Source: Perkinsus olseni
Taxonomy: Eukaryota
Direction of reading: 5' to 3'
NCBI GenBank assembly: GCA_013115125.1
Contig: JABANN010000359.1
Coordinates: forward strand, 1 to 35,695
DNA length: 35,695 nt
Shown piece after piece: positions 4,979 through 30,115 of the stretch; position 1 is the first letter of the stretch; each line of letters opens with the position of its first letter. A program made the translations under genes and the position numbers. Below the pieces are notes generated by a model. That model did no database searches and was not told where the DNA came from. It was given only the letters and a program-made list of their open reading frames with translations.

Positions 4979-5626
4979 TAGACAGGTAGTAACATTGACT
5001 CTGCGGGAGGTATCAGAGAGCAGAGTGCATGTTAGCGAAGACACCCATTGAAACAGTCGTCTTGCCTCAATTCTTTCGCGCGCTGCAGAGGATGAAATAA
5101 GGGCGAGCGCTGATGAAACTGGTCTTTTGTGCAAGATGAGGGAATATTGCTATCTTGTGAATTCTAAAACCTTAGTAGCACGCGCGCTCATGATCGGAGT
5201 TGCGTTGTGTTTTCGACGGTGTGGCGTGGGTTAAGTATGAGCGCGGTGATGGGGGTACGTGGTTCATCAGCACCGGCCGGCACAAAGCATCAGAACCGGT
5301 CATCGATGAATCGACAGCACTCGCATAGAAGATTGCTTCCCGTCAGGAGAGAACGAATTCACTGGCCAGACGCCATTGGCAAGTGTTAAGTGTTTATGAG
5401 ATACACTTTACAGCTCCATCTTATCGGTAGGTGTCGTAACAAACCCGCCATTGCCTTCGACTATGAGTGGGGGAGAGTGACACCAATAAATGGCTATGAA
5501 CCAGCTAGCTTCGATAGTCGCCTAGCTACGACCTGAATTCTAAGAGTACTAACGCAGAGCGGCAGAGAGTTGACAGCACAGTAAATTGCATGAGTCATGA
5601 AGTTGATAGTAAGTGGATGAGAGCCG

Positions 5627-8136
5627 TCAAAAATCACATGCTTCGCAACTGGACTCACCGAGGAGGAAGAGCTGAGAGGAAGAGAAATGCAGATCCAATC
5701 ACAACGGGAACAATCGCCCGATGGCTCACACGAAGCCATCCTTACCACTGCTTCGACGGGGGCTGTTATTTCGTCCGAAGGCTCCTTCCCACAGGCCTCC
5801 ATGATGCAGTGATGTACAGCAGTTGTCACTGCCGTTTCCGGCGGGATCAAGCCGAACATTTGGAAGAGTGCAGTGTTCTCTTGAATGTTCATCGTGTTAC
5901 TGCCGTCCATGTCCATTGCAGCGTACGTTGGTGCATAGAAGTTGGTGCAAGCAGGCAGGCAAAGCTGCGAAGCGCCGCTCAGGAGCCATTTCCGGCAGTA
6001 CCCGGTGAGGGATTGTGATAAGCCGATAAGAGAGGCGTCAACGTCACAAGCATCGGCCGCCGATCCTGACCCGCAGTCCACGATTCCTTCCGTCCACTCG
6101 GGAAAGTCGGCACTTTGGCAAATTGGGTTACCCGCCAGGCCAAGGTACTCGAGATGGCGCATTTCTCTGAGCGACTCGAATGGCAATTCTTGGATTTGTG
6201 AGAGCTCGAACTGGAAGGAGCGGATGGAGGGCAGCCGTTGTTGCACATCATTGGGCACTGTGGATAGCTGCGTCGCTGTCACGACGAGGACTTCCAGGTC
6301 TTCCAGTAGCCCAAAGTTCAGCGTCTCCATGGGAACCGCTACCAGAGACAGCACAACGAGCCCGTCAAACTTCGAGACTGCATCAAGAAGCTTCTGAGGT
6401 TGATTCGTGCAGGACGTAGGCGGGGTCGGATTGTTGTCAGATATCATAAGATAATCCATCCTGCTGTAGAGTGACAGGCGGGGCATGTCGTCCTGCACAC
6501 ACTCTTCATGCAGGTAGACTGATGCCATCCGACAGTCACAGGAGTCAGAATCTAGGATTGGATACACGGGCAACAAACACTCATCACCGAATCTTGCAAT
6601 CAGCTCCTCGCAGTCACCCTTGAACTGTGTCATCGTTACATAGCTGAAGCCGCTTATACCAATGACCCACAGAGTGAGAGCCATGACGTAGTAACGGAAA
6701 CGCCCTCGCCTCGGTGCACGGGTGAGCTCAGGGCGCTTCGCGATCTCTAGAAGGTATCGATCGACTCCCACAATGTTGTCGAGCGACAGGACGGCAGGGA
6801 CAAGACTCGAAAGGAAGGTTGTGAAGGAGCTGAAGTGCAGCGTATGCCACGTGTCCACCTTGAAGATATTCCCGGATATGATAAGGTAAGCACCAGTGAA
6901 GCTGAAGGCTGCCATGACATCGAATAGAGATGCCCAGACTCTGTTGTTGAGTACAAGAGTGGTTGGACCGACGACCATTACCAACATAATGAGGGTAGCC
7001 TGTGTCATGATAGCCGTACGATCTGCTACGGCGGTTTGCTCTCCAGTCAAACTGCGGCCTCCCTGCTCGGCGAGACGGATGATTTGTAATACAGTGTCGA
7101 AGATCTGCAGGCTGAAATAAGTTTGCCAGAACCAGTCACCGGTCATTTCAGTTCTGCTCCTCAAGGTGGTGCACATGCAGACGATCCGCTTCCTAACAGT
7201 GCATTCAGATCTGTCACGGCATTTTTCAACTTCCACTGCTTGGCTTCTGAGAATATTCAGCTTCGCATTATCGCTCAAGAAAAGCGTCTTCACCACCACC
7301 ACTGCTCGAATGAGGGCGAGCAGCCCGATGGAACCGAGTATTATCGTCTCAACCACGCCAACAGCGGTGACCTCGTAACGTGTATTCTGGGGGTTCGTAA
7401 GCGTCTCAGGGGCAAGAGTATCCAACTCAGATGCTGTTGGAGGTACTGGTACGATGAATTGAGCGTAGCACTGGATAGCACAGATAAAAGCCAGTAGTGC
7501 CTACGGACACACATGCTACGTAAGGCAGAGTGAACAGAAGCAAGGCCACGACGTCCTGACGAAACAGAGACGGCCTGGCCACCGAATCGATGTGTACTGG
7601 CGGGGAACACGGAGAAGATAGATGCAGCGTGTGATGAGGCAGAGACTGACCAGTAGGAGTAGAAGACCTATCCTGTAGGCCGTGTTGTACTTATCGACAA
7701 GTACGACGGCCATATGCTGCAGAGCGGAGTGCCGAGCAGCGATGCGGCGTGGGCCCTGAGACAGAGTCTAAGGTCCGCATGAGCTCATCATAGAAAATTA
7801 CTCGCATCGTCCTGCCCGAGCGCATGCCGGGCCTAGCCTTTTCAGTGGCGTTACCATCGTCAGCAACCGCCACATCCACCCCTAGGGCCTCAACTGCGCT
7901 CGATTCCTCATCCGAGCCCTCATGCTCATGTAGTGCTTCCTCAAAAGTTGGTCGCCGGGCTTCTTGAATGACCCCTGAAAGCCCTGCGATAAGTTTCGAA
8001 AAACCTCAGGGAGCCAGGCATCACCTTCATCTGATAGAGCACCGGAATCCCTCCCAGAACCAACACCATTCGTCTTCACAGCAACCTCCTCTGTGCTCAG
8101 CTCTGAGCTGCGGTGGCCTTCTGTGGTTGCCTCCAT
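5627..8136 (-). CDS. Multi-pass (about 7-8 TM) membrane protein with C-terminal Cys-flanked leucine-rich repeats and an EF-hand-like loop
   Basis: ATG at 8136 (MEATTEG...). A large exon spans ~5746-7500. The last intron is 5672-5745 (gtaag...ctctcag), giving ...EAV|LFLLGESSCEACDF*. Hydrophobic segments are followed by LRRs (LEDLEVLVVTATQLSTVP, IRSFQFELSQIQELP, LEYLGLAGNPIC) and the loop DMDGSNTMNIQE at 5878-5913. Confidence 0.8.
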
Positions 8137-8410: not shown

Positions 8411-10643
8411 ATGGCGTCCATGGTCAATATCCCGAGCCACAACGACGACCCGGCATACAGGTAGTACAACGGGAAAGGAGGAGGGCGATGTGGAAGCAGC
8501 AGCCTTTAACTTGAAGTATGGGTGTAATCGTACTCGGACCTGAGAGTATCTTATTCGATCTTGCTGTGCATGCTTGGGTTGCAGGTACAAGATGCCCAAG
8601 TTAGTCGTGAAGATTGAAGGCAGGGGTAATGGAATAAAGACTAACATTGTAAATATGGTCGATGTGGCAAGGGTGAGAATCTATCTTACACCATGGCAAG
8701 ATTCAAGTCGGGTTAACCTCTCTAGGCCCTCAAGAGGCCTCCGTCCTATCCCACTAAGTTCTTTGGCTGCGAATTGGGAGCCCAGAGCAAGTTCGATGAG
8801 TCCACTGATAAGGCCATCGTCAACGGTGAGCATCAGCAAGCGGACATGCAAACGCTCCTTGACAAGTTCATTGAACGGTAATTCCGTGGTGTTCCCGGAT
8901 CGACCTTGAATACCACAATTTGGTCGCTCAGATACGTCTTATGTCAAAACTGCCATTTACCTGAAATCGATATGAGTGTGAAGAAGGGGGACATCAAGGG
9001 TGTCTGCAAAGCCTGCGGGTGGAGAGGGAGTCTGGACATGACGCATAAGGTGGCCACCTTCATACTCAAGAACCCTCCCCAAGGGACAGAAGGGTTCGGA
9101 GGTGTTGCCAGAACAGGGAAGAAGGATAAAGCTGAGCGACAAAGGGAAAAGGCGGAGCGTCAACGAAAGGTGAGTTGAAGAGATTCCTGTGGGGGGGAGA
9201 GTGGTACTGTAATAGGAGGCCGCTGGTGATGATGCGGATGACGACATAGTGGTGAAGGAGAAGAAGGAAAAGAAAGAAAAGAAGGAAAAGAAACACAAGA
9301 AGGATAAGGGCGAGGATGATACCGAGAAGAAGGAGAAGAAAGAGAAAAAGGATAAGTACGATGGGGTATCCCTCAGGCGTGCGCGTGCTCGTACCGAAGG
9401 GACTGTGATGAATATCTGAATGTGGTGGGAGTGAAGTCAAGTAGTTCCTTGCGGTTCTAGTGACTGGAAGTGTAGCGGACGGATGTTGTTAAGGTCGGAG
9501 AAGAAGCACCATAAGCATCACAAGCATGACGAGGAAGACAGTGAAGAGGGTGGAAGCAGCAGTAAGAAGAGCAGCAAGAAAAAGCACTCTAGGAAGCAGG
9601 CTTCTGGGGATGATGAATCCCCGAAGACCAGTAGGCCTTTCAACTCTGTCCGTACCTGATTATCACCGCATCATCGCAGATGGTGATGCTGCGGATGAGA
9701 AGGCTGATAAGAGCACGCAGGAGATGGACTTAGCTCCGCTCACTTCTCAAAGTCCTGAGCTTCAGGAGGCAGTCCTCGAACCCCTGGCCGCAGCTATGAA
9801 GGACGCCGGAGGTATCTTAGGTTGATCATTGACTTTGATCGATTATGCTTCGCATCTTTTCAGGCATACCATCCATGCCTGTTGACGACTTCCTACAGGA
9901 GCTTCGTCTCTTGCAGATCTCTCAGAGGTTCTCACACGTTACAAGACTTTATGTCGCCCTTGAGGTAGAGCGACTTATCGTGGCGAGTTGTGGTTCACCG
10001 TGTACTCAGGTTATATTCTCGGAGGAGAAGGAGGGCCTCTGTAAGGACACCTTCGAGGCACGTCTACCTTATGTTAGTCGAGTTATCGACAACGCTGGAC
10101 TTACCACGGCCGAGGTAGGAGATAGTGGTGAAGAGGGTTTGTCGGTGTACGCTCAGTTATAGGTTTGCGAAGCCTTCGAGGTTATGTATTTGTTGCATCC
10201 TGACGTCGCGAAGATAGCCCACTATCCTTATATCCTGAAGGACCTTTATGATGAGAACCTGGTCACTGAAGGGGCCCTGCTGAAGCACTACGAGGGTAGC
10301 AGTTCTCGGAAGGGGTAGTATAGTCATTATCTAGCAGGCGAGGGATGCTGTTGCTGATGGTAGGTTCCCCTTGTGCCGCAAGGCTGCAACTCCCTTCCTC
10401 GACTGGCTGCGCACAGCAGAAGCAGAGGACAGTAGCAGTAGTGATGAGGACGACGACAGTGATGACGATGAGGAAGAGGAGGTGGTGGTTACCAAGAAGG
10501 CGCCTGAGTCCAAGCAGAAGGAAGTCGCCAAGGTCAGCGATGCTTGCTTCTATTCGGGGCTGATGATACTGTTGTGGTTGTACGCTCAGGCGCAAGTCGC
10601 GGAGGAGGACGATGGCTCCGACATCGACGTGGATGCTATTTAA
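8411..10643 (+). CDS. EIF5: Eukaryotic translation initiation factor 5 (GAP domain, Zn ribbon, W2 C-terminal domain)
   Basis: [58 protein letters not shown]...CKAC zinc ribbon; LKDLYD...[14 protein letters not shown] acidic box; ends DIDVDAI*. Confidence 0.96.
9252..9356 (+). repeat. Low-complexity KEK/KKEK codon repeat within the eIF5 linker
   Basis: A/G-rich aaggagaagaaggaaaagaaagaaaag tract encoding [18 protein letters not shown]...[10 protein letters not shown]. Confidence 0.8.
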
Positions 10644-10905
10644 ACTTAGTCCTTCCTATTCACATTACTACACTTGCTCTTCTCCCTCGTGGAGCCGCCA
10701 AAGTATCCCCAGCTTCGTCATAATCTGTTGAGTTTATTCGACCCAATACTGTCGAGGGGCCCTTGTGTCGATCACAGTCAGTATTAAGGGAGCTTCTGTG
10801 GGCGTCATCTGGCTACATTCTGGTACCGGTCAACGACCGGCGTACTCGCGTGAGGAGGGGACAGGGAAGATCATCGTTACTGGAGTTGGTGATAATCTTC
10901 CGCTG

Positions 10906-13553
10906 ATGGGCAGCCGGTCGAGATCTCGCTCCCGAGATCGATCGTCTCGTCGCCGCAGGTCGAGGGATCGTGATGACCAGGACAGAGGTGATGCGGTTAG
11001 GACGCGGTGACACGGCGTTCTCATTGGAAGTCTCCTGGACTTTTCTAATGGATTTTAATCGGTTGAGGGCTGCTTACGCTGATCGACGATCGACCTTGGT
11101 TTTTTGGGGTCCCCAGCACATAGTCTTTTCAGATCGGTCACGGTCTCGTGGACGGTCTCGGCGGGAGAGGAGACGGTCGAGGTCCCGAGACCGCAGCAAG
11201 AGATCTAGGCGGGACTCGCCGGAGCCAGCACCCAGTGTTTTCAGTAGGGTGGCCTGCTCGAGGTAGATGTGTCTTTGAGCTTCTGTAGGTGTAGCGCCTC
11301 CTACGCCGAGGCCACAGGGAGAGGGAGTCTCATCAGGAGCCACTATGGGAAGAGTAGTGGAGATTGTAAACTTGAGGCGTGTAACTGGGAGTATCTTAGG
11401 TTAAAGGTGATGCATCTGAGAGGAGGTTGACGGTGAAGAATATCCGTCAGAGGGACTCTAGCCAGCAGTCAGTGATGGACTTCTTCAAGGGAGCGCTATT
11501 TGCCGTCACTGGCAACGGCGGGAAAACAACTCCGCTTCACCCGGTGGGCCACCCCATTACTCGCTTTCATGGGCTATGGTCATGCTCAGATCGTCTCTGT
11601 GTTTTTCTTGATCTCTGATGGTCACAGTCGTACAGCCCTCGTCGAGTTCCGGACTACCATCGCCGCAACAGTGGCCATGAGGCTCAATGGTACTACTTCT
11701 CGCGGGGCTATACACTACGTAGTCGTATGAGCGTCGGGAGGAGAATCTTAGGTCGACGCTTGCATGATAGGTATCGACTTGGATGGGCGTAAGTTGGCGA
11801 TAACAAGGCCCCACGGGTATAATAAGGAGGACCCTTCTAAGAGTATAACGGCCGAAGAAATCCAGAAGATTACCATCGAGGAGCTCTGTGGTAGTACCAT
11901 CCTCGTACCCATGCGGGAGTCGAACGATGATTGGCAGGAGGATCTGCAGCGAAGAAGACCTCCGGCATGAACTTGCAATTGGGGATATACCATCTCCCAC
12001 CAGTAATGTATCCATAGGGGTCGTGTGAGTAGGCGATCGCACCGGGCTGTAGGTGATGACGGAGACCTACCTGCGGGATCTATTGGAGCAGTTCGGCGCT
12101 CTGACTATGGTCAGCTTGATAAGGGATAAGACCACCGGCTTGAGCAAGGGGTACGGCTTCTGTCAGTTCGAAGGTAGTAGCAGAGTCATCGGTCTTGCGA
12201 AGGCGCATGAGGGATGGGTTGCCTCATTCTTAGACGCTGCCGATGCGGATAGGTGTCTGTACGCCCTTGATCAATTCGTCTTGGGTAACTACAGTCTCAG
12301 TGTTACCAAGCTGGTACCGGACGCCCAGCAGGGAGGGGTAGGCGGGTTCGAGTATCTCGGCTTACTCGCCACTTCTTCGCTGACAGGCTGCTGGTATCGG
12401 AGGCGCTGGTGTGGCTCCCGCGACTAATCTGGCCGACGGTTCATCAGGGGTAGTGGCGGGGGTCTTGGTAGCCTTGTAGGAGGGCGCAGCTCGTGCTCGC
12501 AGGTCCAGTCTATGACGGCTCGTGTGCTGGCTAACCCAGCCTTAGCTGCTCAACTGAAGGCCGGTCGAGAGATAGGGTCCACTCCAAGTACAGTAGTGCA
12601 GCTCCTCAATGCTGTTTACATCGAGGATCTCATGTCGGAGACGGGTAGTTACAAAATCGAATCTTTGGTGGCTGACTCTGGTCGCCTTCGATGCGTGTGC
12701 CATTTCAGAAGTCAAGTCGATCGAGGATGAAATACGAGATGAAGCGCAGAAGCACGGCACAGTACTGGAGGTCCGAGTCCCACGGGTGAGAGTCGTCCTA
12801 GCCTGGTTGGTTGGTCAGCCTGTTCCTCTCTCAGCCATCAGCAAGCCTGACGCCATACGCCAATGGCGTTGGGAAGATATTCGTGCAGTTCGCGGACATA
12901 ACGGCGGCCAGGAAGTTCCAGGCCGTCAACAACGGGAGGAAGTTCGACGACCGGGTTATGTGCGCAGCCTTCTATCCGACTGATAGGTGATGCGGAGGAG
13001 GCTACCAACTTTGTCGTTACTAACTTGTCACGCCTAGCGAAGCTGAACTCTCTGTTGGACCGGAAGTAGTTTTGTAAACGGCTCACGAGTGTCATCCATA
13101 GCATCTCACGGCCGCCCCCGGTTGAACCAACTTTGATGCCTAGTAGATTCCGAGGTCTGTGACGTGTGTGGGGTCAGGTATAAGATGGGTAAGTATACCC
13201 TGTATAACGTAGAGAGTATGACGATGGCAGTAAGACCGGTGAAAGCACCACCGCCTAAGCCTCCACCGCCAGCTGTTGGTATGACCTCCTGCCCGCTCTG
13301 CTGTCTTTGAGTCTCGTCCTTGTATAGGGTCGGGCCCAACGGCTATTGGGGAAGAGGAAGGAGATGACGTGAGCGATGAACAGAAAAAAGAAGCCGGGAC
13401 GACCGAGGCGTCTGGTAGGTCTAGCGTGAAAGTTTTTGGTGAATCAGTTGCATGCTCTAGCCTTGTGTACATGCGTTTTGTCTGGTAGATACCGCGAAGG
13501 GGGCGAAAGAAGGAGACAAGGCTGATGATGATGATTGTGAGGTCGTGGATTGA
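10906..13553 (+). CDS. U2AF2: U2 snRNP auxiliary factor large subunit (U2AF65-like), divergent
   Basis: N-terminal RS domain (MGSRSRSRSRDR...). RRM1 ends LAITRPHGYN. RRM2 has LIRDKTTGLSKGYGFCQF. The UHM has VVQLLNAV...DEIRDEAQKHGTV...GVGKIFVQF...GRKFDDRVMCAAFYP. A Pro/acidic tail ends DDCEVVD* at 13551-13553. Confidence 0.88.
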
Positions 13554-13873
13554 CGTCGTCGTGACTAGTACAGTTTCGCTCCTCCCCTGCCAACGTCTTG
13601 TGTTCTTCTAGCCTCCCTTAAGCTGTGGACGGTGTGTACCTGTGGAGCGTTCACAAGCTAGATGACCTCGAGCGATGGCGCTGTCGCTCGACTTCACTCA
13701 CCTCAGGCCGTACACTGTACGTGAGATGCCACTCAGTGTAACGGGCCGGATAGTTCGTCGTCCCCCTCGAGGCCGACCTCCCTTGGCATGTCCTGTCTCC
13801 TTTTTGTGTGGCCACGACTGTAACAGCAGCCACCGCATCACTCGCATAGATTGTTCTTGTTTTTCGAATTATT

Positions 13874-15224
13874 ATGTTGAGCAATATTGCCCGTCGTGGC
13901 TTTGCCTCCGTCACTGCAACTGCGAGACTCGCAGCCCTCAGGCAGCTCATCAAGACAAGAGCTGTAGGACTTTTCCCGACCCGGAGTTGCGCGTTCGAAC
14001 GTCTCTTTTCTCTCAGCCTAACAATGGCGTCATCCGAGCGATGGAGGCCCACTCCGGCCTCTCTGCGATGGTCGTGGAGCAGACTAAAGGCCGAAGAGCT
14101 GATGGTAGTGTTTTGCGCTGAGCCACGTTCTACGGTCGTCCGACTCGCTGTTGGTAGGCTCGGAAGCAAAGTTTGACTGCCTCTGGTCTTCCTCGTTGAC
14201 TTCTAGCACTCTGAAGGGGATGCCTGATATTGAAACGGTTGATACCACACAGAGATTGCAAATAGTCGAGGACTGCCTCGACGTCTCTTCCCTCCCTATG
14301 ATCTACGATGGGGACACTGGTGGGGAGGCCGAGATCTTCCGATTCACGGTCAAGAAGTTGGAACGTCTTGGTGTGAGTGCTTGCGTTATCGAGGACAAGA
14401 CCGGGCTCAAACAGAACTCGCTATTTGGCACTGAGAGGTAGTCAACTGGTGCGGAAATGAAGGCTCATTGGCTCATGTTATTCAGGAAGCAGCAGCTTGC
14501 TGACGTTGATGAGTTCTGTGACAAGTTGGCGGCCGGCAAGGATGCGCAGGTCACCAACGACTTTATGATTTTTGCAAGAGTTGAGGCTCTCATCGCTGGT
14601 TTTGGACAAGACGAGGTGCTTTCACTACTTCTGGTGGCGACCGTGATGATGGTGTCTTCGCTCAGGCCATGCGTCGAGCAACGGCGTACCTGGAAAAGGG
14701 AGGCTGTGATGGTATTATGATCCATTCTAGGCAGAAGGATCCTCAGGAGATCTATGATTTCCTTAAAGTACCCATTCCCTTACGGCTTGCTTTTGCGTCC
14801 GTCGACTCATCATTGTCCGTAGGTTTTTCGACAGCAATACCCCGACAAGGTCAAGACGCCGATCATCCTAGTTCCTACTAGGTAGGGAAGCCCTTTTGGT
14901 TTCTGGCGTTTCCTCATTCAAATTGCGCTCAGTTACAACAGCGTCCACGAGTCTGAGCTGGCTGAGCACGGTGCGAATATTATTATTCACGCCAATCAGC
15001 TCATCAGGGCAGCCTATCCCGCCATGCAAAAGGTCGCAGCCGAGATTCTCTCAGCGTAAGAGTCCCCCCACTGGTGCTACTGGACTTGGTGGTATTCCCT
15101 TGTTGTCAGTGGCCGGTCGCAGGAAGTTGACGGTGAGATCATGCCCATCAAGCAAGTGATAAGCTTCATTGATGACAACACTAGTGCGCCCAAGGCTACG
15201 GCCCACCCTACTGCGAGCTCGTGA
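13874..15224 (+). CDS. pepM: Phosphoenolpyruvate mutase (phosphonate biosynthesis) with putative mitochondrial presequence; 8 exons
   Basis: MEAHSGLSA, LWSSSLTSSTLKGMPD, YDGDTGG, the diagnostic EDKxxxxxNS motif EDKTGLKQNS (14391-14420), ARVEALIAG, IMIHSR, LVPTSY and HANQLIRAA. Seven GT-AG introns, for example 13964-14016 and 14105-14157. Stop TGA at 15222-15224. Confidence 0.95.
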
Positions 15225-15418
15225 GAAGGGTGCTGGATAGATGTATTAACCACTCTTTTTTTCTGACTGTGGAGTGCTCTTAGTTTCTACCGTGTTAGTG
15301 AGTGTATCAGCGTCGTAACTATAGTGCGTTCTGTGTCTCTAGCAACATGATCTTGTGTTATCAACGGCAGGGTTTTGTGAGTGCTAGTTGGCCCTGGTAG
15401 TAGTAGGAGCCTTTGCCG

Positions 15419-16801
15419 ATGTTCATCATCACTGTGGTGTCGGACACTATAGTCCTCCCACCTGATGAGTTCGAGCCTGGCAAGCACATATCGCATGTAC
15501 GGCGGCGGATACAGGAGAAGTAGTACCACTCCTTGCGCAACTCGTACAGCTGAACACTAGACCGCGCACGACTGCCTCCCTGAGGGTCTGAGGACTGCCT
15601 TTCTGCTTACAGGGCTTCTTCAGTTGCATGTCCCCTTACTAGGTACGTAGATCGAGTGATACCGGATGTCGGCCTGGTAGTGGCTCTCTACGACATTATC
15701 AGGATAACGGATGCCTACATCCATCCGGCTGACTTCCACCATCAGAAGGTACCATCGACGCTAGCTGGTGAGAGCCGCTCCTCATCACGCATTGTTAGGG
15801 CGGTGCCTTCTGCAAAGTAGCCTTCCGGTTGTGTGTCTTCCGGCCGATGGTTGGTGAGACCATCGTAGGAGTGGTGGACCGTTCTACAGCCACTGGCCTC
15901 TACGTCAAGCTTGGGTCCTGGTTCAAGGACGTACATATACCCTATGCTGATCTGAAGTAATACCACCACTACGTAGTGAGCACACGACGACGTCGCGGGA
16001 CTTCGAATTGGAACACACACAACGTGGGAGGTTTGGTATCGCTCGTATCTTAGGGACCCGTGCTTGTATGATGAGCAGACGAAGCTGTGGATTTGGCAGT
16101 ACAAGCGAGAGGACGCTACTGATAGTTTCTTCTACAGGCCAGGTAGGACCTCTCCCTGTGAGGGTGGGACGCCATGACGATCCGCTTCTGTTCTTAGGAG
16201 CTGAGATATGTTTCTCGGTGAAGGCGATAGTGTTCAATCAACGGCAGGAGGCTAAGACTGGCTTAGCGCAGGTTGTGACAGAAAAGGACTCTAAAGGTAG
16301 TAGTGGGGTAGTAGGGGTTGCAGTAGTAGCAGTAGTGACTACTACAGCGTACGGTCCATCCCGGTGATCGGCTATGGGACTGGCCGCAGCCAGGGCTCCT
16401 CTGAGAGTCTTGCGCTCCGTTCACGCGACGCGCGGTATCGTACAGTGACGCCAGCATATTCTGTCCCATCTCTTGCACGCGTGATGGTGGGGTGTCTATC
16501 GCCAACACTTTTCCGGCAAAGTTGGGTACTGTGGTCCTACACATATCGTGTAGCCTTTCATTTCCCATCTTCTGATGCCCAACTCGCACAATGTATTCGA
16601 GACCCCATCCGGGTAGCAGTAGTGAGAACCTTATTATGATGAGCGGCCTCTCGTCGTTGCACGGTTAACCTCGCCCTTTCGAAGCTCTCGTGAGTATCCC
16701 TTTCCTCATCAGGTCCTAGTGCACCGCTGCCCCCAATGCAAGTATTGGGTAGTGTCGCTGGGGACGGTATGGGTCTTACCAGCTGGTGGGCCGAGGAATG
16801 A
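15419..16801 (+). CDS. POLR3H: RNA polymerase III subunit RPC25/RPC8 (Rpb7-like)
   Basis: Mostly absent from the ORF track. Spliced: MFIITVVSDTIVLPPDEF...IQEK|YVDRVIPDVGLVVALYDI...FRLCVFRPMVGETIVG...WIWQY... ending VLGSVAGDGMGLTSWWAEE*, the typical RPC25 C-terminus. Confidence 0.9.
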
Positions 16802-16926
16802 TACTCCCCCATACGTTTACTACTCGACAGCCTGTTGCGTTAGAGTGGAGTTACTAGTCGTCTACGTGGAACCGGTGTGATCTTCTCCAAGTTCGGCTCT
16901 CCCGTTACCCCAGCACATATCGTTTG

Positions 16927-19405
16927 ATGTCACCAACGGCGGTAGATACTACACCGTTGTTGCCTGGCTCGGAGGAGTTCATTCCGGACACTAAGCCGGA
17001 GGAAATCCTACCAATATATAGATCGCTAACATCAGCCTTCAGAACTGGTAGCTAGCAATAGCCTCCCTGCCCCATCGGCGAACCTGCTTCCCGCTTTTTC
17101 CCAGATCGTACCAAGTCGTTGGAGTGGCGTCTGGAGCAGTTGGACGCTCTAGAGCGCATGATAAGGGAGAATGGCGCCCTTTTCAAACAGGCCATGCTAG
17201 AGGACATGCATGTGTGAGCGGATCACAAAAGGGCTTCGCTTGCTCCTCAGCCTTGTCACTGCGAAACCATCAGGCTAGCCACTGATGTATCAGGGCCTAG
17301 TAGCAGCTCGGAAGAGCCTGCCTGAAGTGCCGCTGTGCAGGTCCCCTCTGGATAGTGATGTCATGCAAGTTTCCCTCGTATTAAGCGACATTGAGCTCTT
17401 CAAAGCCGATCTCGAGTCCTGGATGAAACCTGAGACTGTATCCTCGAACGTGCTCACCTTTCCAGGTCGTACTCATCTTCGAAGATACCGACGTTCTGAT
17501 TCTGATGATATTCCTTTTCAGGCAAATCGGAGCTCCTGAACGAACCCCTCGGTGTCGTGGTTGTCTATGGCGCGTGGAACTACAACTTCCTTCTCACCCT
17601 GCAGCCCGTTGTGGGCGCCATCGGTGCCGGGAATTGCGTAAGCTGCTCCGATCGAACTTATATATCTCCTTCACGCTCCCACAGGTGCTTATCAAGCCTG
17701 GTGACTACGCAGTGAGGAGTACTCAAGCTATGATGCAGCTCATTCCGCGGTATATGGACCAGGACTGTATCAGAGTGGTCAGTGGCGGGCCGGAACTCAG
17801 TGACGCTATACTTGAGCATGAATGGCAAAAGATATTCTTTACCGGAAGTGGGCTCTCCCTTCATTAGTTGTGTGGTTACATGCAATACGGTATGTCAGGT
17901 CCGAACGTTGGGCGCATCATCTACGAGAAGGCTGCTAAGTTTCTGACACCCTGCACCCTCGAACTGGGTGGGAAGAGCCCTTGCATTGTCGACGCTACGG
18001 CCGATCTCACTATCACGGCCAGACGTAAGTGACCTCAATGACTTCTGTGAGGAGGACTTCCATCACCTCAGGCCTCGTGTGGGGTGCTTTGGCCAGTGCT
18101 GGACAGACCTGCGTCAGACCGGATTATGTCTTGGTAATAGGCTTGGGGACGGCTGGGAGGACCATCAATCCGGCTGGTTCGCTCACATCTTCATCAGGTT
18201 CATGAGTCGATCGGCGACAGGCTAGTTCAGACGGTCAAGTCCACCGTCAAGGAGTTCTACGGAGAGGATCCTAAGGAATCTCCGTGGTTCGCTCGTAAGC
18301 TCCAGCTTTGTGTGTCATCCACGCATACCTTTCTCGTAGGTGTGATCAACCAACGTAACTTCGATCGCGTTACCGGCCTTTTTGATGGGTCGGAGGACCT
18401 TATGGTCCTGGGCGGCCCGAAGACCATGGATCGCGACACATGGTGAGCACCTCTTCCGCCGCTGGATGAAATAATGGAGGGCTCTGTATCCACCCTTCGG
18501 TTTCTGCTAGTTACGTGCCTCCGACAATTATCAATTTCCGTACAGACAAACAGCGCTTCGCTGCGGCAAAGGTTATGCAGGTCGGCTATCCCCTCTCCGA
18601 GAGCTACTGCTTTTGTCACATCACCGCTCTGATTCAGATGGAAATCTTCGGCCCCCTTATTCCGGTCTGCTACTACAAGGACTTCTCCGAGTGTGTGGAT
18701 TTCATTCGGTAAATTGCTGTGCGGGAGGTCAGTCGATCGTCCCTTTGTTCAGGTCTCGTCCGTCTCCCCTTGCCTCCTACCTCTTCTCATCAGACCCGAC
18801 CATGAAGGAGACGTTCAAGCACAGCATCCACTCGGGCAGTCAGGCCATCAATGGTCCGCAGTTTTTCTCGCGCTCTCGAATTTACGTCCGTCCGCCTGAT
18901 GTACGCGTACTGTGGTTACAGATACGATGATTCACCTCAGCGTGGAGGACTTGCCCTTTGGGGGTACCGGTGCCTCCGGCTTCGGCTCGTACCATGGGAA
19001 GTACTCCTTCGAGTGCTTCTCACACAAGAAGGCTGTAAGGTGGTCTATGATCTCGCCAGAGCTAGTCGCCCCAAACCTAGGTGTTGTCGCGCCCTACGAT
19101 TCTGGATGTCCCTCAACGTTATCCTCCGTACACTCCAGCAGATGGAAAGTTCTTACGCGCGGCCCTCAACGCCAAGGTTGGCCGACACGATTGTAGCGGG
19201 CGTATCACGTGGCAATTTCAGCTCTCTCTCGTGTGGGGAAGGTTGTCTAAGTTGATGACCACAGGGAAGATCGTGGCCTTCGTCGTATTACTCTTGGCGT
19301 AAGTCCTCGAATAAGAGCATAGCAGCCCTGATTTTCGTAGACCACGTTATTCCGGTGAGCAGGTTCTTGCTGAGGAAGAACATCGCGAGGTTCGTGCTGC
19401 AGTGA
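16927..19405 (+). CDS. Aldehyde dehydrogenase family 3 (fatty aldehyde dehydrogenase-like) with C-terminal membrane anchor; many introns
   Basis: [29 protein letters not shown] (catalytic Glu), [10 protein letters not shown] (catalytic Cys), [30 protein letters not shown] and RYPPY. Hydrophobic tail [23 protein letters not shown]; the last exon is uncertain. Confidence 0.92.
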
Positions 19406-21218: not shown

Positions 21219-24200
21219 TCATGCTCCAGCCACAGCCTTTTCCTCTCTTGGAGAGCTGGCCGCCTCTTGCTGTTTCGAGGAGCCATGCAGCCCTTCGGAT
21301 ATCACAGCATTGAGAGCAGGGAACTCTCGGTCGTCTCCAGATTCTGATTTAGCGGGCTTTCGCTGATTGCCTGAAAAGGACGACTTTCGCCGAAGCCATA
21401 GCAGCTCGCAGGCCTCGCGGGACGAGGGGCCTACGTTTTCCCGCCTTCTTGTTTTTGTTCGTATTATCGCGCAGCTTGAGGACGCGCGGGCCGGATGAGT
21501 CGAGCACCTACGGGCATGCGAGAGTACGACTTTACAAGCAAGTGCGCTGACTTTACCGGTGGTGCAGATTTGTCCGAGTCCTTTGCTTCAACATTCTTCG
21601 TGAAGTCCACTCGCTCGCCCGCTGAGATTGCTTTCACCATCTCCTCAGCTCGGGCAGCAGACTCCGGTTGACCAGTTATCCGACAGTTAGACTGGCCCTC
21701 CTTGGCCTGGTCGAAATCAATCGAGGTAACTCCAGTGACTGCCTTGATACGCTGTATCTACGGAAAAAACAGAGTTACCCAGTGACCGATATGGCACTGG
21801 CAAGCTCACCGTCCTGCCCTTTGCTCCAATGACGAGCCTCACGGTGTCCTCAGGGATCTCGAACTCAATGGTTTCCGTCCCGCTGGTAGCGTCTCGTAAG
21901 TCGTTAACCAGTTGACCGAGCATCTGCAAGTACACAAGGATATGCCAAAGACTAGAAACAGCGCAGCCTTACTCTCTTTGCTTGGACAACATCAGCCTTG
22001 GAGCCAATGAGTCTGATATCTCGGCGGGTGCCATTCCGTCCCCCAGCGGCTGGCGATCGGCCGCTTCCTTTACCGCTGCCACCCAACAGCGTCAAGTTGG
22101 TACCGGTTTCCTTGCCAATCTGATTGAGCTTCGCTGCCCGATCTCTCATCAAAGTGCCGATAACGGCATCAGCGAGCTTGGCATCACCACTGCAAGCTCC
22201 GAGCACCGCGAAGGTCTCGGTAACCTCAGCGTTAGTGGCCACGTTCGGTATGTCCTTCTTAGCACTAGCCACAGCCTCAGGGATACCAATAAGCTCCAGC
22301 CTGGGTCCGGAGTTCTCGTTGTCGATGCCGCCGCCCCGCTTGAACAACACTCGAGTGAGATGATTCTTCAACCGCAGCAGTTCAACGTTGGCGGACCGCA
22401 TCCAGACGTTAACATCACCGCTGGGGACGGGAACCGTCTCGAAGCTCATGGCAGCCTCCTCGACCAGCTTCTGCAGTTCCTTGGCAGCCTGTTCAGCTTC
22501 ATCTTGACTTTGGGAGAGAACAGTGATCTTCTTCTCCTCGGGGTCCTTCACGATACGGCACCCGCCTCGATACTCCCGCTTTATGATCGACAGACGCGGC
22601 CCAAGCAGAGCGTTGGCTGAGAACAGCTTCTCCCGCTGGTCCTTCGTCTCGACTGGTACCACCACTCGAGCGACAGCCTTGATAGCGCTGTTGAGGACCT
22701 TGCAAGCTTCACTAACCTTGGCTTCGGTTGGGCCCCTGACCGTCACCGTAGCCTTCTGGTTGTTGAATCTTGCCTGCACAAAGCAGCCCGTCTGGGACTG
22801 GATCTTCCTCAGTCCCATCGCACCGTCACCCATCACACAGCGTAACGTTTCGGTGTCAAACGTGACCACTTTACTGACAGAATTCTGCGCCCTATCAGCA
22901 GTTCTCATGGCGGCCTTGATCTCATCGGCAGCCTGCTTGACCAGAGTTCCCTTGGTGGGGCCATGGACGACGATATCCGTGTTACCAAAGGTGATAAAGA
23001 GGGACTGCTCGTCAGAGGTCTCAAGCTTCCTGACTACGTCTCCGGCGCGTCTGCGAGCACCGGGAACGTCAGTGGGAATCGGTACGCGGACCACGTTGTT
23101 GACGTCAATCAGCTTCAACTGTTGTACTGCGGCTGCGAGGGCTTCTTCCGAGTTAGCAGAGACACGAACGCCGCGAACTAAACCGGTCTCACCATAGAGG
23201 GGCTCGAGTAGGGCAGTGACGGACTTCTCGACACGGGGTAGGATGGATGGTTGACCTTCTGGAGGGAAGAGCAGACCGATCAGCCGTGCCTGAGCAACGA
23301 AAAGGGTAACCATTCGTTGGATGGCCCATGGCCGATGCGCACTACCCGTCACGCACCTGGACGCCATCCTCAAATCCTGTGGATATCATCGGTAGCTCGA
23401 GCTCCTGCAAGTCGGTAACTTCTTCACGGAGCATCTTCCCCAGCCTGGTCGCCCGTCGGCTCTCGATGGCTTCCTCTCGCTGCTGCTTCCTCTTCTCCCT
23501 CTGCTGCTCCTGACCTTCGCTCAGTTCCTTCTTCACCAGAGTCATCCGGTGTTGCAGGTTTCTGAACATCTCGTGCGCGGCCGTCGGGATGAGCTCTGCC
23601 TGCGCGGACTCTAGCATGCCCGTGACCTCCTCCGAAGGTGACAGCTGCGAGAGCTCGAATATCTGTTGACGCAGGCGCAGAGTAGTCTGGCGCTTGTCCT
23701 TCGGCTTGGGAGGCAGGTCGGCACGGATATCCTCCACTTGCTGATCGAGCGGGCTAACGAGGGCCTGGAAATCGGGCCATTCAAGCTCTCGGAGCTTGTT
23801 CTTGGTGGTGGCGTCGATCATGGCATCCATCTTAGCCTTAGAAGGAAAGTCGGGGACGGGTGGGAAAAGGGAGGGGTCCTGCGGTAGTGACGGGATGTTC
23901 CGCTGACACGATCAGCTTGGGTGTCTTCCTACCGCCTTTATCGGTTTGGGCTCATCCTGCTCAGCCTCTGCCTTCCTCTGCAAACGCTTCTTTCTCTTTA
24001 ACTGGCTTTTAGTCAGCTCGACGGGCTTTGGCTCCTCCTCTTCCTCTTGAACGGCCTGCTCAATAGAAACTGTGCCAACAACCGGTTTCCATAGTCCTTA
24101 CCTCCTTGTGAGCTCGACGACGCCTCCTGCGACGACGGGCGGCGCTGCTACTGACGGCAGGCTGAGGGGAGTCTATGGGATCCACCGGAGACTTTGGCTC

Positions 24201-24356
24201 CAACGGGGAATCGGCCCCCACTGTAGTCGGGGCAGGGGACATCGCCACTGCGGCCGGGGGCTCCTTGGCCAGGATCGAGCCAGTGGAGACCGGCCCAGCC
24301 GTAGTGGTGGGAGCACTGAGGGATGACGGCTTGTTATTTCTTCTTCTGTGAGGCAT
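21219..24356 (-). CDS. Multi-KH-domain RNA-binding protein (vigilin/Scp160-like) with N-terminal basic/coiled-coil region
   Basis: Repeated KH-like units (VMGDGAMGLRKIQSQTGC...VTVRGP; LMRDRAAKLNQIGKETG...IRLIGS; VRLVIGAKGRT|IQRIKAVTG...CRITGQ). Starts MPHRRRNNKP. The last exon ...DDREFPALNAV...AVAGA* stops at 21221-21219. Confidence 0.82.
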
Positions 24357-24692
24357 AGTGATAAAAAAAGAAAACAGACACTAGAGAGACCAGACTTAGG
24401 CAACCGAGGCTCTCTCGGTTAGCAGGCAACACAACAACAGCCCGGAATGACGACGACCAATCTTCACCCGAACCACGACTGAGCATGGGAGCGGCAAGAA
24501 GCCTCGGGGATCCGCAAGAGCCTGCAGGGAATCCCTTAACCGAGCCTGAATTTGCTAGGATTCGCTACGGAAGCCTTGAAGTGGGCATACCCTCCTTTCA
24601 GAGGGAGCCGCTTTGATGGGGCCTAGGGGAGGACACAAGCCGTAGGCCAGTAGCTCAAGTGAGACACGGCACACCTCTCCCTCTTAGCACGA

Positions 24693-26344
24693 CTACGTCT
24701 CCTCCTTCTCCTCAGCAGGCGGCGTCGGCCGACCCTCAAGAGCCGTTGAACCCTCGCATACATACCAGACCACGAAGGCTCCACCAAGTGCCCTGACGAG
24801 CCTGACAGAGCACAGCATACCGACGATGATGCCGGAGACAGAAGATGAAACTCCGAGAACTGACGAAGGAGTACCTTTTGTCCACTCCGGAGGATGAGCA
24901 GGTTTTAGGGGAGATATTCTCGAGGCCGCGGAGCAGTTCGGTAGCGGAAGTGATGAAAACCTGACGATACTTCGGAACTACAAGCGAGCGACCGATGTGT
25001 TACCTCCTGATAAGCTCCGCACAGTTCTCAAAGCCTCGCTTGTTTGCGGACTCCAGCTTACCGAGGGAGCCTTCCACAACATCATAAGGGCCGTGAACAT
25101 GACCATTCCCCTTCGGACAGCGAAGCTTGGTATAAGTCTTAGATACATCACGGAGCTTCCGAGCTACAGTCCGCATCTCCTCATCCCTCGTTTCCATACC
25201 ATCCGCCAGAGCCGGAGCTCTCATAAGCTTCCTACTGGCAGTCGGCCCCACCTCCCTGGGCGATTCCGAGAGACTCGGCTTCTCCAGCTCGCCACCGCCG
25301 TACTTCACCCCATCAACTGTTAGCGACAGCTGACCCTCGCGAGGGCTGTTGACAATCGAACATTTCCTTTTCGTCGGCGCTGCTGTCGATGAGCCAGTAA
25401 CCTTGACGGGTCCTTGAGGGACCCGATTGGAGCTGCTCTGCTGCTTCTTGAGCCGGCCTCTGGTAGGAACCCCTCGTAGCCCAGCTGAGTAGCCGACAGT
25501 GACGCCCTCGTTGACCTCTCCTTTCAAGAACGCGCCAAACATACGCAGAGCTCGGGCATCATTGGTAACGGCAAATGCCTTCTTCTGAGCGGCCGATATC
25601 GCTTCTTGTACAGGATGGTCAGCCGAGACGTGATAAAACCAGCCATCCCAGTCCGAGTCTAGAGCGGCCTTCTGGGCACCGGCGGAGGTCTCGGTGGTGA
25701 GGAGGGCGAAGAACGCCGGTGGAAGGAACTTGACGCCGTCCACTGACGCGGTTAGACATGCCCTGAGCCGGCCTTGAGATTTGGTGACGGAGAGGTACAG
25801 AGTGGCCAAAAAGAATAGATAGTCCTGTAGAAGACCGTACGAGAGAGACGGCTGTCACGGGGCACTCACTTGCAGCGTTGGTGGCAGCGGGCACCAAATG
25901 GTACAGAGCTCCAAGAGGAACATCGAGAGGCCATCATAGTCCACTGAAGAGGAGGAACCAACGTCCCGAGGAAGATGACCGACGGCTCTTACTTAGATCA
26001 CGACCCTCGCCGCCAGCGGTAGAGTGAGCCTCCCCGGACCAATCGCCACGAGCAGAATCCACAGCTTCGTTCAACTGGAAGTCACTAAGAAGGGATTTCT
26101 GAAAGACAACAGTCACCTCACGACAACGACGATCAACACACACCTGCAAACGGACGTTCAGTTGTACATATTCTTCCTGGCCTACGCCCTCTTCTTCAGA
26201 TACAGTCTCCCAAAACAGTCGCATAAGGAACTGCAGGTGATCGCTCTCGTACAGAGCAGCTTGCATCCGCACCAGCAGACCAGAGTCCAGGGTGGAAGCC
26301 TCGTCCGACGGGACACTTCCGGCTCGACCCGACAAGGCGGACAT
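24693..26344 (-). CDS. Hypothetical protein with N-terminal degenerate EF-hand-like helical domain
   Basis: Spliced: ...FWETVSEEEGVGQEEYVQLNVRLQ|KSLLSDF...ARGDW...DL|MDYDGLSMFLLELCTIW...|DYLFFLATLYLSVT joined to ORF 25000-25809. Probable end ...AEEKEET* at 24693. The pattern resembles a domain I recall from protist hypothetical proteins; this is not verified. Confidence 0.65.
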
Positions 26345-26728
26345 GATGAGGCAGAGAGAAAACCTCTAAAAAGATAAAAATCTGTAGAATATGACATTGG
26401 TGTCCGACTATAGATATACCCATTAGAGAAATGATCCAGCACGACAATAATCAACAGTAACTATAGATTCTATAGTATAGAATTCTCGTAAAAAACGGGA
26501 GTCGTTTCCCTTTCCTTGAACTCGACAGGACAGCCATAAAAAAGCGCTTTCTCGGGTGTTTGGGTAGTATCTCCTCGACACGCTGGTGGAGAGATGATAG
26601 CATCATAACTATGATAAATCTCAATTGATAACGACGACAGCACACTGCTACTACGAGAAGGACCGTACGGTCCAACATGGATAGAGCTGGGTGTATTATA
26701 GTATGGAAGAGGGAATAATCCCGGGTGT

Positions 26729-27557
26729 TTAGATACCGGTAAGCTGGCGCTGTTCATAACGCCTTCCTCGAGACTGGCCGTCCCTGGCATCACCGATGGT
26801 ACTGTAGCGAGCGCCACCCAAGGCCTGCATTCCGGAGGATCCATGGCGCGGCAGATGGGGCACGGCGTCTTGGGTCCAACGCTGGTCGAACTCAGCAGCG
26901 GTGTCTTCAGTGAGGCCACCGCGGAACATGTCTTGGGTATTTTGGTCACCAGTGTTGCGGTTGCGGCTACGAACGACCCTGCGACCTGAGCAGGAACAGA
27001 ATGTTGTTTTCGAGAGAGCGCAGCAAGCTGACCTTGTTCGCCCATGGTCCTCTCCAAAGCCATCTTGTCCATGCCCGTGCCCGAGTTGGTGTACATCTCC
27101 TGTTGTTCTCGTAGCTGTCGGTCAGTATCTCCTACGGTCGAGCTTCGATACTGCTCGGTCACCGTCTTGCCGTCGGATCCTCGAGTACTGGAGGAGACGT
27201 AAACCTGATATAAGGATCAGAGCCATCGGAGGCACCAACGCAGAGCTCGAGCTACCTGACTGGAATACTGCCCTTGTTGAGGTTGCCCAGCGGACAGCAT
27301 CCCTCCAAAGAAGCTATCACCATCGTTACGGGTCATGCGGGTCATGTCCCTCTCCATCCCTTGCATCATACTGTCCATAGCCTGAACAACACACTGTGAA
27401 CTAAGCCACAGCCCAACCGGGATGCTACCTCCTCTTGCGCCCGGAACATCCTGTCGAACGCCCCGAACCCGAAGAGGTCGTCTTCGGCCTGCTCTGCCCG
27501 AGCTAGCTGCCGCTCAGCTCGGCGCTCATCGAAACGGCGAGATACTCTGTCGAACAT
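26729..27557 (-). CDS. Myeloid leukemia factor (MLF) family protein
   Basis: Met/Phe/Gly-rich N-terminus (DLFGFGAFDRMF...MDSMMQGM), then VYVSSSTRGSDGKTVTE...QEMYTNSGTGMDKMALERTMGEQ|GRRVVRSRNRNTGDQ...AAEFDQRW, which matches the MLF domain pattern. Three introns. Confidence 0.8.
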
Positions 27558-27740
27558 AATTTCGCTGTAAAAGTAAATCTACAAGAAACTCGTCAAAAAA
27601 CCCGCTGGCCCTCCCGAACACAACGCAGCCTGAACGATCGCCACCATAAATAGTTGAGTGTCCGAAGGGACGCAAAGGCGGTAAGCATGAATGATACAAA
27701 TAAGCACCATGATGAATTATGCAGAGGAGCGGAGAGAGCA

Positions 27741-29634: not shown

Positions 29635-30115
29635 ACTTCGCTAGAAATTGGCTAGGGCCTCTCAACCATTCTATCAGAGCAGGACGCAGCCGAAAACGCG
29701 CAAATAACCGACAACACAGTAACGAGCAGGCCAACTCGACTACACGGACGTTCGACAGCACAACCCACCTGGGACTGCCGAGTCACTGCCCAGCTCAGAG
29801 AGGCTCGGACAGTAGTCGCTCCAACCATCATCACCACTACTAGCCGGACTCGGAGAACCCGGCGGGGTTCCTATGCGATGGTGCTCTATATCGAAACTAG
29901 ACATGACATCTGTCAAACCACCTGTAACCTAACGAATCTTGAACACTTAGCCCATTCCTCAACGCTCATCTACGTCCTTGAACAACATTACAGAGTGACA
30001 ACACGAAAACGACTTCAATAGAAACGGGTAAAGGTTGGGGTAAATGATAGCTTCACAACTCACAGGTATTAGCAATCAACTAAGAGGCACAGTGGTGAAT
30101 GAAGGCCTCCACTGT

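Follow-up and report, generated by a model that had tools for sequence, protein, structure and literature searches.

A seven-intron nuclear gene of Perkinsus olseni predicted to encode a stand-alone phosphoenolpyruvate mutase of a type common among protists

The stretch of DNA analyzed here (positions 1-35,695 of contig JABANN010000359.1 from the Perkinsus olseni assembly GCA_013115125.1, 35,695 nt, in the following called the window) contains a gene for a putative phosphoenolpyruvate (PEP) mutase, PepM, at positions 13874-15224 of the forward strand. According to the gene model, it consists of eight exons and seven GT-AG introns of 48-55 nt (Table 1), with a coding sequence of 987 nt that specifies 328 amino acids. 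The ATG begins at 13874 and the TGA ends at 15224, exactly where an initial annotation made from the sequence had placed the two ends of the gene. Perkinsus genes are described as containing one to ten GT/AG introns, mostly shorter than 100 bp (PMC3101222), and the seven short GT-AG introns of the P. olseni gene are consistent with this pattern. A coral PepM with seven introns has already been published, as stated in PMC3640398.

Table 1. Features of the PepM locus and its surroundings in the P. olseni window (X6, X10, X11, X20: sequencing runs with intron-skipping contigs).
Feature	Position in window	Strand	Basis
eIF5-type domains	8.9-10.6 kb		domain scan of window ORFs
RRM protein	~12 kb		domain scan of window ORFs
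Mature mRNA	13848..15339	+	X6, X10 contigs
Exon 1, codons 1-30	13874..13963	+	gene model; no family match when scanned alone
Intron 1, 53 nt, GT..AG, phase 0	13964..14016	+	model; absent from X6, X10, X11 contigs
Exon 2	14017..14104	+	model; TIGR02320 18.6 bits
Intron 2, 53 nt, GT..AG, phase 1	14105..14157	+	model; absent from X6, X10, X11, X20 contigs
Exon 3 with WSSSL, DGDTGG and EDKX5NS	14158..14437	+	PF13714 66.4 bits; TIGR02320 127.3 bits
EDKTGLKQNS, PepM-specific EDKX5NS motif, residues 138-147	14391..14420	+	motif search
Intron 3, 48 nt, GT..AG, phase 2	14438..14485	+	model; absent from X6, X10, X11, X20 contigs
Exon 4, carries R184 (aligned to Mytilus R159)	14486..14615	+	TIGR02320 48.9 bits
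Intron 4, 50 nt, GT..AG, phase 0	14616..14665	+	model; absent from X6, X10 contigs
Exon 5, carries H216 (aligned to Mytilus H190)	14666..14767	+	TIGR02320 37.8 bits
Intron 5, 55 nt, GT..AG, phase 0	14768..14822	+	model; absent from X6, X10, X11 contigs
Exon 6, 19 full codons, below scan length	14823..14881	+	model; homologue alignment
Intron 6, 51 nt, GT..AG, phase 2	14882..14932	+	model; absent from X6, X10, X11 contigs
Exon 7	14933..15055	+	TIGR02320 40.8 bits
Intron 7, 54 nt, GT..AG, phase 2	15056..15109	+	model; absent from X6, X10, X11, X20 contigs
Exon 8 including TGA stop	15110..15224	+	no family match alone; aligns to homologue C-termini
Rpb7-type N-terminus	15.6-15.8 kb		domain scan of window ORFs
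KH protein	21.9-23.4 kb	-	domain scan of window ORFs
Ankyrin repeats	28.2-28.7 kb	-	domain scan of window ORFs
Actin, 342 bits	30.1-31.2 kb	-	domain scan of window ORFs
C2HC zinc-finger protein	31.8-33.7 kb		domain scan of window ORFs

The genes around PepM are eukaryotic, and its GC3 of 60.8% lies inside the span of 56.9-68.1% found for six nearby ORFs. Together with the removal of the introns described below, these observations agree with the initial annotation in that the gene is not bacterial contamination; chance or contamination as source of the locus is ruled out. Domains of a phosphonopyruvate decarboxylase, an aminotransferase or a cytidylyltransferase were not found in any of the 181 stop-to-stop ORFs of at least 75 aa in the whole window, a length limit at which shorter exons are missed. 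An aldehyde-dehydrogenase-like gene, located two genes downstream of PepM, was considered as a phosphonoacetaldehyde dehydrogenase and rejected, as by eye it looks like a class-3 enzyme; Pfam was silent on three of its ORFs.

Evidence for a processed transcript came from assembled contigs of public sequencing runs, which were aligned to window positions 13600-15500. Contigs of four runs skip introns at the predicted borders, namely seven of seven in X6 and in X10, five of seven in X11 and three of seven in X20. X20 is the sole run recorded as RNA (metatranscriptome), and the organism label of X11 and X20 differs from that of the DNA runs containing the stretch. The lack of introns at the predicted borders implies that a spliced form exists, with the restriction that assembled contigs give no expression level. 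Thus, the gene model, the intron-skipping contigs and the neighbors, along with the family scans reported below, bear out the description of an intact PepM with seven spliceosomal introns in eukaryotic surroundings.

Both contigs that skip all seven introns, one from X6 with 1128 nt and one from X10 with 1135 nt, match the window from 13848 onward, that is from 26 nt upstream of the ATG, and extend to 15339 and 15335, respectively, leaving a 5′ UTR of about 24 nt and a 3′ UTR of about 111-115 nt. Ahead of 13848, 11 letters in the X10 contig and nine in the X6 contig, there following adapter-like letters, do not align with the window. Read together with the genomic AG, these letters equal the last 11-13 nt of the 22-nt PmaSL1, as judged from one contig per run in two runs. 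PmaSL1 is described as the spliced leader of Perkinsus marinus, with TCTT in place of the TTTT of dinoflagellates (PMC3101222). The match to PmaSL1 is short; taken with the intron pattern, it makes a perkinsozoan the likely source of the gene. The whole 35,695-nt window contains no leader-like sequence. The AG at 13848-13849 is a likely spliced-leader acceptor, and the PepM pre-mRNA apparently receives a spliced leader.

With regard to the identity of the encoded protein, family scans were run exon by exon. TIGR02320 (PEP mutase equivalog) was the best model in all five exons that gave any match; exons 1 and 8 gave none. Exon 3 scored 127.3 bits on this model vs 37.3 bits on PrpB and 34.9 bits on phosphonopyruvate hydrolase (NCBIfam models). 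The five scoring exons together reach about 273 bits, which is an exon-wise sum and not a whole-protein score, whereas the TIGR02320 cut-off of 319.55 bits applies to the whole protein. Five of five full-length relatives from the same clade lie above this cut-off, at 334.6-368.4 bits. The window protein also contains the strings WSSSLTSSTLKGMPDIE and YDGDTGG. Its residues D83, D110, D112, E138, K144, N146, S147, R184 and H216 are identical to the aligned Mytilus positions D58, D85, D87, E114, K120, N122, S123, R159 and H190, which we take to be metal-binding and catalytic residues.

The protein might in principle be another member of the isocitrate-lyase/PEP-mutase superfamily, such as a phosphonopyruvate hydrolase, a carboxy-PEP mutase or a methylisocitrate lyase, given that PF13714 spans all of these enzymes and that exon 5 scored higher against the phosphonopyruvate hydrolase chain 2DUA (25.9 bits) than against the Mytilus PepM chain (19.6 bits). 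Against this, TIGR02320 outscores TIGR02321, TIGR02317 and TIGR02319 in each scoring exon, and in five of five full-length relatives its lead over those models is about 200 bits or more. Moreover, EDKTGLKQNS, which the initial annotation had pointed out as the catalytic motif, is present and intact and corresponds to EDKXXXXXNS, the marker that tells PepM apart from the rest of the isocitrate-lyase superfamily according to PMC6697681. We therefore regard a different superfamily enzyme as highly improbable. The sequence points instead to a stand-alone phosphoenolpyruvate mutase (TIGR02320, K01841), for which catalytic activity would be expected by homology. This assignment is one part of an explanation that we consider likely as a whole, namely that a native nuclear gene is transcribed at this locus, with seven introns removed and apparently a spliced leader added, and that its product is a stand-alone PepM.

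Ahead of the PepM domain lies a stretch of about 21 residues with three Arg and no acidic residue; the domain boundary was derived via the homologue P0009, by which position 1 of TIGR02320 corresponds to approximately residue 22. A fused nucleotidyltransferase (PF01467 or PF12804) is absent from this short stretch ahead of the domain. The N-terminal extensions of the Symbiodinium and Diplonema PepMs resemble the basic 21-residue stretch. One may guess that it serves as an organellar, perhaps mitochondrial, address, although we would not give this reading an even chance.

When exon 3 was used as query against a collection of 5.8 billion proteins, 6278 matches were obtained. The best 120 of these are 71-82% identical over exon 3, with 139-160 bits for the protist matches, and 49-68% identical over the stretch aligned by BLASTP (55-65% for near-complete matches). 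EDKxGLKQNS is found in 120 of these 120 proteins, a precomputed PF01467 (cytidylyltransferase) domain is listed for none of them, and no near-identical protein is among them. Sixteen of the 120 carry the name of a eukaryote resource or of an organism, and all 16 are protists, including Symbiodinium, Alexandrium (two), Diplonema, Hemistasia, Euglena and further EukProt and MMETSP entries. In six of the 120, PepM is joined in one protein to both TPP domains (PF02776 and PF02775) of a decarboxylase. Over the full length, 112 eukaryote-like rows are 52.7-65.3% identical to P. olseni PepM, and 80 prokaryotic loci 45.7-55.1%. That protists possess PepM has been known for a long time, and the database entries of Symbiodinium and Diplonema already bear this name.

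Prokaryotic relatives were collected by a scan of one genome per species, which yielded 564 of them; with a protist sequence as query, the best 80 of the 564 show 50-59% identity. At about 73 of these 80 loci, an open frame with at least 125 residues lies ahead of the PepM match, and PF01467 was found in all three such upstream frames that were scanned. A search with the Diplonema protein added 29 more fused proteins with 47.7-52.5% identity to P. olseni PepM, among them two assigned by name to Rhodobacteraceae; the PepM of Trypanosoma cruzi was not among the best 120 matches to the Diplonema protein. The combination PF01467-PF13714 is referred to as Fom1-type architecture in PMC6697681.

These comparisons clarify the subtype of the enzyme. 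The initial annotation had noted a resemblance to bacterial AepX-like enzymes and a contrast with a Mytilus-type signature, and on both points it was correct: the nearest prokaryotic relatives are cytidylyltransferase-PepM fusions, and Mytilus PepM (PDB 1M1B) reads WGSGL, DADTGYG and EDKLFPKTNS and reaches 40.6 bits against exon 3. The type I signatures WGSGL and EDK(L/Q)FPKxNS are absent from P. olseni PepM, which has WSSSL and EDKTGLKQNS instead; they were found in 1M1B and in three Actinomycetota loci. What has to be revised is the implication that the Mytilus type is the only eukaryotic signature, as the EDKxGLKQNS type is eukaryotic as well (16 of 16 named best matches are from protists). 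A bacterial-looking signature that is common among protists does not, even in combination with introns, prove a private horizontal transfer.

For phylogenetic analysis, rows shorter than 270 aa were removed, fused proteins were trimmed to the PepM domain, and one locus (L095) from a genome flagged as unpublished was set aside, so that no conclusion depends on it; the trees do not include PepMs of animals, ciliates, kinetoplastids and oomycetes. In a FastTree phylogeny of 193 rows, the 80 prokaryotic rows split off with a support of 100, and P. olseni PepM shares its side with 112 rows, of which 16 are named protists and 96 lack an organism name. A quick IQ-TREE analysis (LG+C20+F+G4 PMSF) of 81 rows was rooted on type I PepM, using as outgroup the three Actinomycetota loci in which the Mytilus-like motif occurs. 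Here, the clade made up of the 36 prokaryotic rows has a support of 100, and P. olseni PepM joins a stand-alone set with a support of 87. At its base, the eukaryote-like side forms a polytomy, into which the root falls. In a third tree (FastTree, 246 rows), to which the 29 additional fused proteins had been added, all 109 rows of fused or prokaryotic proteins cluster in a single clade (support 100), and P. olseni PepM is found in a 35-row group with Symbiodinium (support 91). Between the two clades, there are no diagnostic columns at 90%, two at 80% and six at 70%, and P. olseni PepM shows the eukaryote-like state in six of the six columns that discriminate at 70%.

The initial annotation had proposed an independent horizontal acquisition with later intron gain. 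Spelled out, this lineage alone would have taken an AepX-like, cytidylyltransferase-associated PepM from a bacterium, and both the loss of the fused domain and the gain of the seven introns would have followed. In favor of this scenario, the fused prokaryotic PepMs (46-55% identity over the full length) are far closer to P. olseni PepM than the Mytilus type is, the terminal branch of P. olseni PepM is long (0.42-0.62), and a topology with P. olseni PepM as sister group of the prokaryotic rows was not rejected by an AU test (delta lnL 0.73, p 0.49). Nevertheless, the prokaryotic or fused rows, be it 36, 80 or 109, always form a clade without P. olseni PepM, its best matches are stand-alone protist sequences, all six discriminating columns side with the latter, and the composition of the gene matches that of the adjacent genes. 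Since protists are closer (53-65% vs 46-55%) and the exclusion from the prokaryotic clade has a support of 100 in all three trees, a lineage-specific bacterial acquisition is not supported, and we consider it quite unlikely. A placement nested in the sampled prokaryotes is contradicted by the trees, and an ancient transfer to this lineage alone, from a donor on a stem outside the sampling, is formally conceivable, but nothing calls for it. What is left of the phylogenetic expectation is that the protein is not of the Mytilus type and is near to AepX-like fusions; its position lies outside the prokaryotic clade, among stand-alone PepMs of protists. The likely explanation given above thus includes that P. 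olseni PepM belongs to a stand-alone clade common to dinoflagellates, diplonemids and euglenids. Apart from this correction of the inference on its origin, it is an ordinary, well-behaved metabolic gene.

A different question is how this clade came into being. One old transfer, in either direction, may link the stand-alone clade of protists to the fused clade of prokaryotes, followed by vertical or eukaryote-to-eukaryote inheritance. This proposal addresses nothing but the origin and does not conflict with the explanation preferred here. The two clades are mutually nearest, share EDKxGLKxNS and are both distant from type I PepM (outgroup branch 1.79 + 1.79). In addition, the named dinoflagellates are split over two subclades, with Alexandrium near the diplonemids and Symbiodinium elsewhere, which suggests paralogy or transfer between eukaryotes. 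On the other hand, the root sits in the polytomy, the four eukaryotic groups named above are missing from the trees, and vertical descent of two ancient paralogues stands as an alternative. Overall, an old transfer is a serious candidate, to which we assign a probability somewhat below one half.

PepM catalyzes, with Mg2+, the interconversion of PEP and phosphonopyruvate, whereby the C-P bond is created, and it forms the entry point to almost every C-P compound found in nature. The presence of PepM predicts phosphonate production by the organism. As the equilibrium of the reaction favors PEP, net synthesis requires an enzyme that consumes phosphonopyruvate, normally phosphonopyruvate decarboxylase. 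In P. olseni, PepM would, by homology, form phosphonopyruvate from PEP, a coupled decarboxylase would consume it, and an aminotransferase would then yield 2-aminoethylphosphonate (AEP) for lipids or glycans. The fusions of PepM to a decarboxylase in the same clade illustrate such a coupling. When the decarboxylase half of one such fusion was used as query, the best 120 matches, most of them rows without a name, included no protein named for Perkinsus.

Taken further, these considerations lead to a tentative joint proposal, which we put forward as a possibility with somewhat more against it than for it. Perkinsozoans might make phosphonates (AEP or a derivative) de novo via a spliced-leader-capped and possibly organelle-addressed PepM and incorporate them into membrane lipids or surface glycoconjugates; at the same time, Myzozoa and Euglenozoa might share a lineage of stand-alone PepMs that is distinct from the animal type and sister to the cytidylyltransferase-fused enzymes of prokaryotes. 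If this is true, phosphonate synthesis would be an unreported metabolic capacity for a Perkinsus-like parasite, and such head groups, which resist hydrolysis, would be similar to the phosphonolipids found in invertebrate hosts. To our knowledge, PepM has no counterpart in vertebrates, and under the same premise it could be a selective target. A full-text literature search, judged by title and covering main texts without supplements, found no paper on phosphonates in Perkinsus. One text that names Perkinsus together with phosphon- words merely lists an empty KEGG category. An article on marine phosphonate producers (PNAS 2022) apparently does not treat eukaryotic producers (dinoflagellate, protist and MMETSP do not occur in its text, and eukaryot- is confined to its references).

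In comparison to known systems, the fused bacterial and archaeal proteins (Treponema, Bacteroidales, Clostridia, Thermoplasmata, Rhodobacteraceae) are the nearest prokaryotic kin, with the sub-motif EDKxGLKxNS, and presumably catalyze the same reaction as P. olseni PepM, but they contain an N-terminal nucleotidyltransferase domain of about 140 residues that the latter lacks. The PEP mutase of Mytilus edulis (1M1B, 1PYM) shares the fold family and the nine aligned catalytic-site residues, but represents the other subtype, with one additional residue after DTG. Most similar are the stand-alone PepMs of protists. Those of Symbiodinium microadriaticum (“PEPM”), Diplonema papillatum and Alexandrium catenella share the same side of the fully supported branch in all three trees, and the transcripts of Hemistasia and Euglena likewise encode stand-alone proteins with EDKxGLKQNS, a short N-terminal extension and no cytidylyltransferase. 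Still, P. olseni PepM is only 53-65% identical to these proteins and sits on a long branch of its own, and the seven short introns are known here for the P. olseni gene alone, the protist relatives having been compared as proteins. With respect to the fate of the product, T. cruzi is a precedent for the endogenous synthesis of phosphonates via PepM in a parasitic protist (PMC5648825, citing Sarkar et al. 2003). There, AEP is described as occurring in glycerophosphonolipids, GPI anchors and ceramides (PMC5648825), and it is by this precedent that AEP in P. olseni may be destined for lipids or glycans.

The genes of the window are arranged in runs of the same strand with very short spacers in between. 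The eIF5-like, RRM, phosphoenolpyruvate mutase (PepM), Rpb7-like and aldehyde-dehydrogenase-like genes (about 8500-19300) are all encoded on the forward strand, and the KH, ankyrin and actin genes (about 21900-31200) all on the reverse strand. Such a closely spaced, same-strand order fits processing by a spliced leader. Non-genomic letters at the 5′ end of PepM transcripts (one contig each in the sequencing runs X6 and X10), read together with the genomic AG at the junction, agree with the 3′-terminal 11-13 nt of PmaSL1, the spliced leader of Perkinsus marinus. Judged from these contigs, the PepM mRNA is apparently trans-spliced and the window probably belongs to Perkinsozoa. A 390-nt contig (X6, record 10; window 13600-13877) follows the genomic sequence without a break past the leader acceptor and into the PepM start codon. 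It could stem from precursor RNA that had not been processed, from the upstream RRM gene's transcript at its 3′ end, or from DNA in the library.

Downstream of PepM, a separate transcript, that of the Rpb7-like gene, begins at 15402-15408 (+) in all four runs, approximately 65 nt past the end of the PepM mRNA. Across the four runs, its contigs were 2- to 34-fold deeper than those of PepM (6345 vs. 185 in X6 and 521 vs. 53.5 in X10), contig depth being a poor measure of expression. The following gene looks like a class-3 aldehyde dehydrogenase by eye, with GAWNY, FTGS, ELGGK and EIFGP-type strings in its exon translations; Pfam yielded no match for three of its ORFs. The leucine-rich-repeat ORF also contains hydrophobic stretches, and its length and lack of introns are unusual for the window.

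Features in the window
Feature	Position	Strand	Remarks
Leucine-rich-repeat ORF	5497-7500	-	668 codons, uninterrupted; LRR_8, 26.1 bits
Leader junction	13848-13849	+	AG, 24 nt upstream of PepM ATG
Rpb7/Rpc25-type gene	15402-15500 and onward	+	ATG near 15421; SHS2_Rpb7-N at N-terminus, E 8.6e-6
Aldehyde-dehydrogenase-like gene	about 17060-19200	+	multi-exon; exon translations judged by eye

In both FastTree trees (193 and 246 rows), the named dinoflagellate PepMs split into two well-separated subclades, with Alexandrium adjoining the diplonemids and Symbiodinium placed elsewhere. This separation suggests paralogues or eukaryote-to-eukaryote transfer within the protist PepM clade.

Among the best 120 of 6278 matches to PepM exon 3, six proteins of 665-755 aa (P0025, P0035, P0097, P0100, P0106, and P0120) are fusions of PepM with a complete phosphonopyruvate decarboxylase, and all six fall inside the stand-alone, eukaryote-like PepM clade. 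Since PMC6697681 gives such decarboxylase fusions for only 2 of 1485 prokaryotic PepMs, this architecture may be mainly eukaryotic.
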